Shown here one piece after another: positions 10,811 to 13,465 of a DNA stretch of 43,691 nt; positions within the stretch are counted from its first letter, which is position 1; each line of letters opens with the position of its first letter. A model generated the notes under the pieces. The model did no database searches and was not told where the DNA came from. It saw only the letters and a list, made by a program, of their open reading frames with translations. Source of the stretch: a virus (lineage: Duplodnaviria > Heunggongvirae > Uroviricota > Caudoviricetes); the IMG/VR virus record IMGVR_UViG_2645727945_000025, positions 1-43,691 of that record; one strand, given 5' to 3'. The translations under genes were made by a program, and so were the position numbers.

Positions 10811-11083
10811 TTACCTCGCCGTCAGTTGTTTTGATTTCCGGTAGCCTGCCGCGTAAATGGCTACGTTTGGCAGGCAAATACTTCCACTGTATTCATCTGC
10901 CTTCTTGCAGCGAAGACTTCCGAGTGATGCTGCTTTATCTGCTCTGACGCAACCAGAGAGCTTTAGCGCAATCTTTCGCGCCAGTCGCTGTTCTTGCATT
11001 GCCTGTTCACGTTGAGCCTGTCTGCGTGCTCTGCGGTGATTTCTGGCGTTATCGTCAGCCAGATATGTAATGACTACTGTCAT
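10811..11083 (-). CDS. N: N-like transcription antiterminator (90 aa)
   Basis: Track ORF 10811-11155; start at Met25 with GGAGG RBS; arginine-rich N-terminus (NARNHRRARRQAQ) and C-terminus like P22 gp24; downstream of nutL. Confidence 0.7.
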   Translation of the reverse strand: MTVVITYLADDNARNHRRARRQAQREQAMQEQRLARKIALKLSGCVRADKAASLGSLRCKKADEYSGSICLPNVAIYAAGYRKSKQLTAR

Positions 11084-11123
11084 GTTGACCTCCGGGTAGG
11101 TGCACATCCTTGTGTGTCGATGA

Positions 11124-11243
11124 TTATTTGTTTTTGCGTTCCCACATCCAGTCATCTACTTCAGACCAGATAGTGAAACCGAAGCAGATGGCGAATGTGG
11201 TAACTAAACCACCGAGAATTGGGTTGGTCATGATGTCTAACAT
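11124..11243 (-). CDS. Possible 39-aa hydrophobic peptide between nutL and N
   Basis: ATG with GAGGAACAGAAA RBS; single predicted TM segment; below track threshold. Confidence 0.3.
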   Translation of the reverse strand: MLDIMTNPILGGLVTTFAICFGFTIWSEVDDWMWERKNK

Positions 11244-11414
11244 TTTCTGTTCCTCAGATGATTAGCTTTGGTGGTGTGGTAGGTGGGAGACCCATTTCGA
11301 CCCGCTTCGTCCGACTTCAATTCGGCAATAGTCCCGCAGGCCTCGCCGCTTTACGTGCGACATATTCCCGTCCATGAACCCTTCACCACACCCCAAAGCC
11401 AACTACTCTTTGGT

Positions 11415-11456
11415 TCCCGCATTTCGGCGGGACAATCCCATCAATGTTAAAGAGCC
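11415..11456 (-). promoter_or_regulatory. nutL (boxA-like plus boxB hairpin), approx.
   Basis: Minus-strand RNA contains GGCTCTTTA then UCCCGCCGAAAUGCGGGA, the same 18-nt boxB as nutR. Confidence 0.55.
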
Positions 11457-11503
11457 TGCCAATCTGTTCCGTTTGGCTACCAGCGTCCTGCTGATGGCTA
11501 AAG

Positions 11504-11588
11504 AATACTGTAGGTATTTTATTGTGTAAATACCCGAGGTATTTATTTTTGGTGAAATAATGATAAGCAAATGAATACAAAGGATATT
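11504..11588. promoter_or_regulatory. OL operators and PL promoter region (approx.)
   Basis: Three AATAC-N5-(G/A)TATT palindromes at about 11504-11518, 11529-11543, 11574-11588; minus-strand -35 TTTACA/-10 TATTCT overlap them. Confidence 0.5.
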
Positions 11589-11674
11589 TATTTTTTCGGT
11601 GTCTGCTTGTTCAGTGCTTTTTATGCGGGATATGTGAAGTGGATCCCGATAGCTATTGCTGCCGGGATTATGGG

Positions 11675-12043
11675 TTAGTCAGCGAAGGTTAAGACGAGAA
11701 TTACCTTAATGATGTCTGCTACAACAGACACGGCCATAGATAAACCAAAGACGATCCAAGCCATAGAGATGTCTTCACTACCATCGTATAGAGTTCCGTA
11801 ATCACTGGTGTAAGGCGTAAATGTCGCGCCTTGATACAATAGGTATAAGCTTGATCCATAGAGGATAAATGCAGATATCCCTTGTATTGCCATGATCACC
11901 AGAATCATGAAACGAGCTGATCTATGCGCCCAAGCCTGGCTTATTTTTTCTGATAGAGATTTCGCAATAAAAGCATGCGCTAAGCCGTAAATTGTTGAGA
12001 TTGCCAACATCCCCAAAAAGCTTGCTATAGCGGTTCCAACCAT
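11675..12043 (-). CDS. Predicted 3-TM membrane protein directly downstream of cI (rexB-like slot)
   Basis: Track ORF 11675-12064 abuts cI stop; ATG at 12043 with AAGGGG RBS or TTG at 12064; three hydrophobic helices. Confidence 0.55.
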   Translation of the reverse strand: MVGTAIASFLGMLAISTIYGLAHAFIAKSLSEKISQAWAHRSARFMILVIMAIQGISAFILYGSSLYLLYQGATFTPYTSDYGTLYDGSEDISMAWIVFGLSMAVSVVADIIKVILVLTFAD

Positions 12044-12060
12044 AATCGCCCCTTGCGTGA

Positions 12061-12777
12061 TCAAACCAGCCTTAGTTTTGTCTCAATTGCAACGCCTATA
12101 ATCTTGCAGTTTCCATTGATTGGCACGAGAGGCCATGCAGGATTAAGTCCCTTGAGGTATTTATTTCCGCCGTCGATTATCAGCTTCTTGAATGTTGCTT
12201 CGTTAGAGTCAGAAAGTTTTGCTATGACCAAGCTGCCGTTGATCGCCTCCCTTCCGGTATCGAAAAGAACGAATGTTCCCTCTGGAATGCTTAACCCAAC
12301 CGGTGCCGTCATTGAATCACCTTCCACTTTAAGCCAGAACGCATTACCTTGAATATGCGCGTCAGACTCAAGCCAAACATCTATGTCTTTAATGGTGTAT
12401 GGTTCGCATGCTTCACACCACGAGCCAGCCTGGATACTGCTTAACACCGGATACCTCTTTCCTGCTCTGTATTCCCCTGCATACCTTACGTTGGCATCGC
12501 TCTTAAGGCTTTCTGCCTGTTCTGCAACCTTGGCAGCAATTGACTGGCTAAAATCAGCAATTGAGACTTGCAACAATCGTGCAAAACCAGATGCAACCTC
12601 AACGTTTAGCGCGTTTCTGCCATTAAGATAATGCCCTACCGCTCCTTGGGTGATACCCAGTTCATCAGCGATTGAGTATTGGGTTATTCCCAATTCTTTC
12701 TTTTTTGACTCATACAAAGCCTTAAGACGCTTAGCGTCTTCGAGCTGTTCTGTCGTCAGTGATTTTTTATTTTCCAT
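12061..12777 (-). CDS. cI: CI repressor (HTH plus S24 LexA-like autocleavage domain), 238 aa
   Basis: Recalled similarity to lambda CI throughout (LTTEQLEDAKRLKALYE..., FWLKVEGDSMTAP..., C-terminal S24 domain). Confidence 0.9.
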   Translation of the reverse strand: MENKKSLTTEQLEDAKRLKALYESKKKELGITQYSIADELGITQGAVGHYLNGRNALNVEVASGFARLLQVSIADFSQSIAAKVAEQAESLKSDANVRYAGEYRAGKRYPVLSSIQAGSWCEACEPYTIKDIDVWLESDAHIQGNAFWLKVEGDSMTAPVGLSIPEGTFVLFDTGREAINGSLVIAKLSDSNEATFKKLIIDGGNKYLKGLNPAWPLVPINGNCKIIGVAIETKLRLV

Positions 12778-12877
12778 AGCTTAATTCTAATAGCTAAGGT
12801 ACTTAAACTAAAAATACCCTAAGTATTGATTGCTTTGAATACCTGTAGTATTCTTTGTTCATGGTTAATAACGGAGA
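12778..12877. promoter_or_regulatory. OR operators with divergent PRM and PR
   Basis: AATAC-N5-GTATT palindromes at 12813-12827 and 12837-12853; minus-strand TAGAAT 7 nt upstream of the cI ATG (leaderless-style PRM); plus-strand TTGATT...TATTCT before cro. Confidence 0.6.
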
Positions 12878-12883
12878 GTGCAT

Positions 12884-13078
12884 ATGATTCGAATGACACT
12901 TGCCGATTACGCCAAAATCCATGGACAGGCTAAAGCAGCCAGTGACTTTGGTGTAATCCAGTGCGCTATCAGCAAGGCCATTCTGGCAGGCCGTAACATC
13001 ATGGTTACGGTAAAGCCTGATGGCAGTGTGATTGGAGAGGAAGTTCGTCCTTTCCCAAGCAACAAGAAAAACAAATAG
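12884..13078 (+). CDS. cro: Cro repressor (64 aa)
   Basis: Recalled similarity to lambda Cro ([11 protein letters not shown]...FPSNKK); GGAGAG RBS. Confidence 0.85.
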
Positions 13079-13084
13079 TAACAC

Positions 13085-13128
13085 CGCTCTTTAACAGTCA
13101 TGGTCATCATTCCCGCCGAAATGCGGGA
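13085..13128 (+). promoter_or_regulatory. nutR (boxA CGCTCTTTA plus boxB hairpin)
   Basis: CGCTCTTTA at about 13085-13093; boxB TCCCGCCGAAATGCGGGA at about 13111-13128. Confidence 0.55.
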
Positions 13129-13186
13129 ATACAACGCGCATACGTTGATGCGCATAACTTCTTATTTGTTAAGGAAATACTTACAT

Positions 13187-13465
13187 ATGGAACTTACAAG
13201 TACTCGCAAGAAAGCGAATGCAATTACAAGCAACATCCTGAATCGAATTGCTGTACGTGGTCAGCGAAAGGTTGCTGATGCATTAGGGATCAATGAATCG
13301 CAAATTTCGCGATGGAAAGACAGCTTTATCCCAAAGATGGCCATGCTTCTGGCTGTACTGGAGTGGGGTGTTGAAGACGAGGAGTTGGCGGAACTGGCTA
13401 AGAAAGTAGCCAGAATGCTGACAAAAGAAAAAGCCCCGAAGAACGGCGAATTCTTCGAGGCCTGA
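13187..13465 (+). CDS. cII: CII transcriptional activator (92 aa)
   Basis: Recalled similarity to lambda CII (SQISRWK...MLLAVLEWGV); AAGGAAA RBS before the internal ATG of track ORF 13100-13465. Confidence 0.8.
   Translation: MELTSTRKKANAITSNILNRIAVRGQRKVADALGINESQISRWKDSFIPKMAMLLAVLEWGVEDEELAELAKKVARMLTKEKAPKNGEFFEA
13421..13460 (-). terminator. oop-like antisense terminator overlapping the cII 3' end (approx.)
   Basis: Minus strand: CC(T)CGAAGAA-TTCGCCG-TTCTTCG(G)GG hairpin followed by CTTTTTCTTTTG; CATAAT -10-like element about 65 nt upstream. Confidence 0.4.

Follow-up and report, generated by a model that had tools for sequence, protein, structure and literature searches.

Which repressor system controls the prophage represented by IMG/VR record IMGVR_UViG_2645727945_000025 (positions 1 to 43,691; hereafter the window, meaning the whole 43,691-bp stretch), and do the short palindromes on either side of its cI gene constitute the operators of a lambda-type genetic switch? 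An earlier note on this DNA had described a family of AATAC-N5-GTATT palindromes at both OL and OR and had taken them to define an immunity group distinct from lambda. From comparison of the sequence with those of characterized phages and with a large set of relatives, we consider it very likely that this region is an immunity module carried by a mosaic lambdoid Escherichia coli prophage, that its immunity is of the coliphage HK620 type (imm HK620), and that the palindromes are operators for CI and Cro.

Probable operator sites flanking cI

A search of the window for exact instances of AATAC-N5-GTATT returns four matches (11504-11518, 11529-11543, 12813-12827, and 12838-12852), all of which are located beside cI. 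Shuffling gives an expectation of 0.02 such sites and none of 100 shuffles reaches four, corresponding to an excess of about 200-fold, and the proposed operator family is therefore well founded, with coordinates that are right to within one base. There is a single instance with one mismatch, at 11574-11588 (AATACAAAGGATATT), and only ~0.008 one-mismatch sites are expected in the 130-bp spacer that holds it (an analytic estimate using local composition). The earlier count of five like palindromes, three to the left of cI and two to the right, thus holds for four exact sites, with the fifth departing from the motif at one position. A further, degenerate site had been suspected at OR, and is present at 12789-12803 (AATAGCTAAGGTACT) with two mismatches. 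Two-mismatch sites are present at chance level across the window (20 observed compared with 16.7 expected), such that the support for OR3 comes from its position and its conservation in relatives. Two-mismatch sites in the hkaS-like gene (11833 and 11874) and near nutR (13128) were considered as additional operators, and were rejected as members of this chance-level class.

Extending the palindromes to 17 bp gives the consensus operator R-AATAC-Y-N3-R-GTATT-Y, a pseudo-palindrome in which the 17-bp frame reads G-A-A-T-A-C. The individual sites, none of which has an assigned strand, are as follows.

OL1, 11503-11519: 17-bp GAATACTGTAGGTATTT; exact motif; overlaps the PL -10; the same as the OL1 annotated in HK620
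OL2, 11528-11544: AAATACCCGAGGTATTT; exact motif; the final three bases start the PL -35; HK620 OL2 but for the central base at 11536
Probable OL3, 11573-11589: GAATACAAAGGATATTT; one mismatch; 45 bp from OL2
OR3, 12788-12804: TAATAGCTAAGGTACTT; two mismatches, with one deviation in each half-site; the OR3 annotated in HK620
OR2, 12812-12828: AAATACCCTAAGTATTG; exact motif; the final three bases start the PR -35; HK620 OR2 but for the spacer base at 12821
OR1, 12837-12853: GAATACCTGTAGTATTC; exact motif; overlaps the PR -10; the same as HK620 OR1

The three related pseudo-palindromes between cI and cro (OR3, OR2, and OR1) overlap PR and PRM and have centres that are 24 and 25 bp apart, and the OL cluster, in which OL1 and OL2 are the exact sites, overlaps PL on the far side of cI.

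CI, Cro, and the distribution of the sites among relatives

The two putative operator-binding proteins are encoded by divergent genes.

cI, 12061-12777, minus strand: 238-residue repressor with helix-turn-helix and S24 peptidase domains
cro, 12884-13078, plus strand: 64-residue protein of the lambda-type Cro fold family, divergent from cI, with cII as the next gene

CI matches the Pfam HTH_3 and Peptidase_S24 families and aligns over its full length with the lambda repressor (3bdn, E 3e-52), with an Ala-Gly self-cleavage site and Ser and Lys catalytic motifs aligned to those of 3bdn (IQAGSW with VQAGMF, EGDSMTAP with EGNSMTAP, and TFKKLI in both). Cro matches the Pfam Cro family (PF09048, 3.6e-26) and lambda Cro (1cop, E 5e-19).

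A motif scan of related phages had been proposed as a check on the operator assignment, and we collected 160 loci encoding CI relatives, taken from IMG/VR and from a set in which each species is represented by one genome. The outcome is that the sites track the CI recognition helix. At least two sites are positioned upstream of cI in 75 of the 76 distinct loci in which the CI helix has the pattern QG[AG]V[GA]HY, compared with 1/55 distinct loci that have a different CI N-terminal domain, and loci that share just the CI C-terminal protease domain are without AATAC-N5-GTATT sites. The helix and the sites are found together in Escherichia, Lelliottia, Siccibacter, Enterobacter, Tatumella, Lonsdalea, Serratia, Pantoea, Providencia, Proteus, Yersinia, Pectobacterium, Scandinavium, and Kluyvera, and also in Microbulbifer at 44% identity. 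Measured from the cI ATG, the relatives have their sites near -75, -50, and -26, and they carry a site with zero to two mismatches at the place of OR3. In all relatives with a located OL pair the OL1-OL2 spacing is 25 bp, save for two loci in which it is 24 bp. The half-sites are conserved and the central spacer bases are free to vary, with a pyrimidine at position 7 so that the half-site reads AATACY.

Comparison with lambda

When the lambda immunity region is compared with the window at the sequence level, the two have a common gene order, with cI divergent from cro and an accessory gene between cI and OL, and both have 17-bp operators with a central base pair. Counting from the cI ATG, the centres of OR3, OR2, and OR1 are at 19, 43, and 68 bp in the window, and at 19, 42, and 66 bp in lambda. 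Operators and promoters also interlock in the same way in the two phages: the first two bases of the PRM -10 hexamer are the TA at the OR3 edge, the PR -35 hexamer begins with the TTG at the OR2 edge, and the -10 hexamers of PR and PL are overlapped by OR1 and OL1, respectively. The PRM -10 is TAGAAT in the window and TAGATT in lambda, followed in each by 6 nt before the ATG, and the PR -35 is TTGATT here compared with TTGACT in lambda. In contrast, OL and OR are separated by 1.28 kb rather than 2.36 kb, and OL2 and the third left site are 45 bp apart rather than 20 bp.

The specificity is nonetheless not that of lambda. The imm lambda half-site T-A-T-C-A-C-C-G-C is not present in the window operators, whose half-site R-A-A-T-A-C-Y-T differs from the lambda T-A-T-C-A-C-C-G at positions 1, 3, 4, and 8, with A2, A5, C6, and C7 in common. 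The imm lambda recognition helices are likewise absent: CI helix 3 is QGAVGHYLN compared with QSGVGALFN in lambda, and the Cro recognition helix is QCAISKAI compared with QSAINKAI, within proteins that are 43% (CI) and 61% (Cro) identical overall to their lambda counterparts. The helix changes correspond to Ser45 to Gly, Gly46 to Ala, and Ala49 to His in CI (lambda numbering), and to Ser to Cys at H2 and Asn to Ser at H5 in Cro. In lambda co-crystal structures, the changed CI and Cro positions face base pairs 3-5. The difference in specificity would reside mainly in operator positions 3 and 4 (A-T here and T-C in lambda), and we infer by analogy with those structures that the recognition-helix changes match the operator changes at these two positions.

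An 'evolutionary code' for Cro recognition was reportedly set out by Hall, Lefevre and Cordes in 2005 and by Hall et al. in 2011. The code pairs Gln at H1 with A+2, Ala at H3 with A+5, and Lys at H6 with C+6 (PMC6649833). The window Cro has Gln, Ala, and Lys at these three positions, and A+2, A+5, and C+6 are all found in the 17-bp frame, an agreement that fixes the 17-bp register. The code is silent, however, on positions 3 and 4, which set the specificity of the window apart from that of lambda.

We regard as extremely improbable the alternative that the palindromes arose by chance in intergenic DNA rich in A/T, or that the protein recognizing them is neither CI nor Cro. The intergenic regions are indeed A/T-rich, and the two-mismatch class behaves as expected by chance, but neither point accounts for exact sites in 200-fold excess that are located beside cI alone, for the association of the sites with the CI helix across genera and their disappearance when the N-terminal domain is swapped, or for a geometry that can be superimposed on that of lambda.

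The immunity type is that of HK620

Distinct from lambda as its half-site is, the immunity group is one that has already been recorded. The segment of the window from 11381 to 13300 is ~98.8% identical to coliphage HK620, whose genome was reportedly described by Clark et al. in 2001 (J Mol Biol 311:657). In this region the HK620 record (GenBank AF335538) has nutL, pL, OL1, OL2, OL3, tIMM, hkaS, cI, OR3, OR2, pR, OR1, cro, and nutR as features, and its OL1, OL2, OR3, OR2, and OR1 map onto the palindromes noted earlier, extended to 17 bp. All half-sites of these five operators are identical to those in HK620, as are PL, PR, and the PRM region, and the only operator differences are two central-spacer bases, at 11536 and 12821. 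HK620 and the window encode the same Cro, and their CI proteins differ solely by the substitution A66T. The HK620-type operators, promoters, and immunity type are therefore already known, with annotations that have been public since 2001, and they follow the textbook layout of lambda.

The two spacer differences are at positions that are freely variable across the relatives. The G at 11536 in the OL2 spacer is present in none of 63 other copies, and is also absent from the closest E. coli genome; the A at 12821 in the OR2 spacer is shared with 3 of 65 copies.

The imm HK620 module is also present in HK630, HK140, mEpX2, HZ41, phi296, phi367, and some Stx2c phages, and in 146 of 5426 complete E. 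coli genomes (~2.7%). Identity to HK620 ends at 11381, just to the left of nutL, and elsewhere the window is assembled from other lambdoid phages in mosaic fashion. To the left of this boundary is an N-like antiterminator open reading frame (10811-11155, minus strand), which we take to be of a different, P22/21-like type. Assignment to imm HK620 predicts which phages are excluded by this prophage, although its importance beyond annotation is small.

Promoters and a putative leaderless cI message

Three promoters are associated with the operators.

PL, 11502-11530, minus strand: TTTACA-17-TATTCT (11530 to 11502); found by promoter scan; pL in the HK620 record
PR, 12826-12854, plus strand: TTGATT (12826-12831)-17-TATTCT (12849-12854); read from the sequence; pR in the HK620 record
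PRM, 12784-12812, minus strand: -35 TTTAGT (12812 to 12807) and -10 TAGAAT (12789 to 12784), followed by 6 nt and the cI ATG at 12777

The palindromes had been described as overlapping the -35 and -10 elements of PL and PR, and this is the arrangement that we find: PL overlaps the 17-mers of OL2 and OL1 by 3 and 5 bases respectively, and PR overlaps those of OR2 and OR1 in a pattern like that of lambda. The promoter scan returned PL alone, as PR, with 8 of 12 consensus matches, falls under its threshold. The grounds for assigning PR are consequently its location, the pR feature of the HK620 record, and an overlap pattern like that of lambda.

There is no Shine-Dalgarno sequence ahead of the cI ATG. 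Among 40 distinct relatives (<90% identity), 37 have a TA...T hexamer followed by 5-7 nt and the ATG, and only four have a Shine-Dalgarno-like sequence ahead of cI. Both the geometry, with the same spacing as in lambda, and the conservation of the hexamer layout support the proposal made previously that PRM would give rise to a leaderless cI message in the manner of lambda.

A proposed lambda-type switch

The analysis establishes the sites, their statistics and geometry, their identity with those of HK620, and their co-occurrence with the CI helix. These relationships support a model in which the palindromes are shared CI and Cro operators of a lambda-type bistable switch; operator binding, its cooperativity, PRM activation, looping, and the start of the transcript we infer from the analogy with lambda. 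In a lysogen, CI dimers would bind cooperatively to OR1 and OR2 and so block PR, and CI bound at OR2, centred at -43, would stimulate the weak, leaderless-type PRM promoter. PL would be blocked by CI at OL1 and OL2. The weaker OR3 overlaps the PRM -10, and could act together with the third left site in a loop-dependent shut-off of PRM at high CI levels. RecA-stimulated self-cleavage of CI would lift repression, and Cro expressed from PR would then bind to the same sites and turn PRM off.

Several considerations weigh against this interpretation. The residue corresponding to the lambda CI positive-control residue Glu34 is Tyr in the window CI, which makes PRM activation uncertain and the least secure step of the mechanism. 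The nominal Fisher p-value of 1e-34 for the association of sites with the CI helix overstates independence, because related sequences are counted. In the Enterobacterales loci the recognition helices of CI and of Cro are conserved as a pair, so that co-occurrence by itself does not distinguish binding by one protein from binding by the other. The annotations in the HK620 record are themselves predictions, and we found no binding, footprint, or transcript-start work on these operators in the searchable literature. At the third left site the evidence is only partly independent, as the left half lies in an otherwise conserved block and just the right half, GTATT, can be counted.

A probable third left operator

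The location of OL3 is less straightforward than that of the other sites. To rank candidates we used a weight matrix built from the exact sites of the relatives; it is circular at the ten core positions, and its information is confined to ranking and to positions 1, 7-11, and 17. The third left site proposed in the earlier note, 11573-11589, ranks fifth of 43675 by this matrix, and among 63 copies it has changed in only one, by a single spacer substitution. A site exactly 45 bp from OL2 recurs in eight divergent lineages, including a perfect third site in Kluyvera (L107) with 54% CI identity; elsewhere the third site is 30 bp or 21 bp from OL2, or there is none. On these sequence grounds we favour 11573-11589 as OL3, with somewhat better than even confidence.

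The HK620 record places OL3 elsewhere. Its annotated 17-mer maps to 11550-11566 (TGGTGAAATAATGATAA), ~22 bp from OL2, and its tIMM feature maps to 11563-11593, covering the site that we favour. The annotated position has a GenBank feature behind it, its spacing is near to the 20 bp between OL2 and OL3 in lambda, and some relatives have a third site 21 bp from OL2. It matches just 3 of 10 half-site positions, however, and ranks 15738 of 43675 by weight matrix; four of its positions vary among 63 near-identical copies, four of which have a 1-bp deletion; and when loci of the 45-bp class are aligned, it shows no conservation. We therefore think it highly improbable that this 17-mer is the true OL3.

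The 11573-11589 site lies within a longer conserved element.

A/T-rich block, 11570-11597, minus strand: 28 bp, in the cI sense AAAAAATAAATATCCTTTGTATTCAT; contains the probable OL3

Within it, AAAATAAATA is invariant in nine divergent loci. The block (AAAAAATAAAT...TCAT in the cI sense, with AAAAAATAAAT corresponding to 11587-11597) is positioned ~45-50 bp from OL2, and it is kept in all OL layouts (including those of L087, L092, L094, L071, L077, and L068) more strongly than is the third operator. It could possibly serve as a distal UP-like element for PL, as a transcript end, or be a relic of an ancestral OL3.

The conservation of this block raises the alternative that 11574-11588 is not an operator but a part of an A/T element with another job, such as ending the cI-hkaS transcript (tIMM), acting on PL as a distal UP-like element, or binding a host factor, in which case OL would have two operators. 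We see this as a possible explanation, although not one that we lean towards. It would be consistent with the terminator that the HK620 record places over the site, with the A/T run that lambda too has just past OL3, and with those relatives that are without any third site; moreover, the AAAAATAAAT and TCAT parts of the block are retained even in relatives whose block does not resemble an operator and whose third site is 21 or 30 bp from OL2. Yet the right half is an exact GTATT with the correct N5 spacing, and the flanks are as in OL1 and OR1. In nine lineages of the 45-bp class, the right half has 0, 2, 1, 1, 0, 2, 2, 2, and 0 mismatches, compared with ~3.4 expected. A terminator role is also not favoured, as a scan for intrinsic terminators was negative at tIMM, and the tIMM hairpin, with a stem of 4-5 A-U pairs, does not form when the 3' region of the cI-hkaS transcript is folded to minimum energy. 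Being an operator and having some other role in the block are, in any event, not mutually exclusive.

Returning to 11573-11589 as OL3, the tIMM hairpin of the HK620 record is the AT-rich palindrome that resembles the real OL3, and the OL3 and tIMM features of that record are both probably misplaced. We give even weight to the reading, drawn from sequence comparison, that the third left operator of the HK620 immunity type is 11573-11589, 45 bp from OL2, with the deposited OL3 and tIMM then in the wrong positions, and that the third left operator is evolutionarily mobile within the family (at 21, 30, or 45 bp, or absent) next to an A/T block that is fixed. If so, then looping would control PRM across widely differing OL layouts or else be dispensable, and the conserved block would have a separate role, as yet undescribed, either at PL or where the cI operon ends. 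A by-product is a suggested correction of the OL3 and tIMM features in the reference HK620 record.

A candidate integration host factor site in the gap between OL2 and OL3 (TATCATTATTTCA) was rejected, being a poor match to the consensus and not conserved in the relatives.

The accessory gene between cI and OL

One further gene is located downstream of cI.

hkaS-like open reading frame, 11675-12043, minus strand: 122 residues; from the open reading frame list; hkaS in the HK620 record; downstream of cI

Its product is hydrophobic, has no Pfam match, and belongs to a PHROG family (phrog_6534) with no known function. The gene is situated between cI and OL, in the position of rexAB in lambda, and presumably is co-transcribed with cI in a lysogen. 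It is a candidate exclusion or defence gene.

Variant Cro proteins and a neighbouring specificity

The relatives offer ~40 divergent natural switches that share a half-site and differ in their spacers and OL layouts and, in Microbulbifer, in the kind of Cro, and could be used as comparative material on the evolution of repressor-operator specificity and of Cro folds. The three Microbulbifer loci (L141, L143, and L144) have the same CI recognition helix and AATAC-N5-GTATT in the cI-cro intergenic region, and the gene at the cro position encodes a YdaS/P22-Cro-like protein (PF15943, 6.6e-20) rather than a lambda-type Cro. Two different Cro folds may read one type of operator, with AATACCCCAGGTATT as a candidate site for the YdaS-like Cro.

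In two Proteus loci (L095 and L096) the lambda-type Cro has Gln at H6 (QTAISQAL), yet the operators still have C at +6, an apparent exception to the published pairing of Lys with C and Gln with G in the Cro code. Lastly, six loci (L100, L101, L103, L104, L109, and L111) encode a CI with another N-terminal domain (helix ITKGAVSHWLN) and have TATAC-N5-GTAT[TC] palindromes upstream, which by sequence would represent a neighbouring specificity, one base from the HK620 type.

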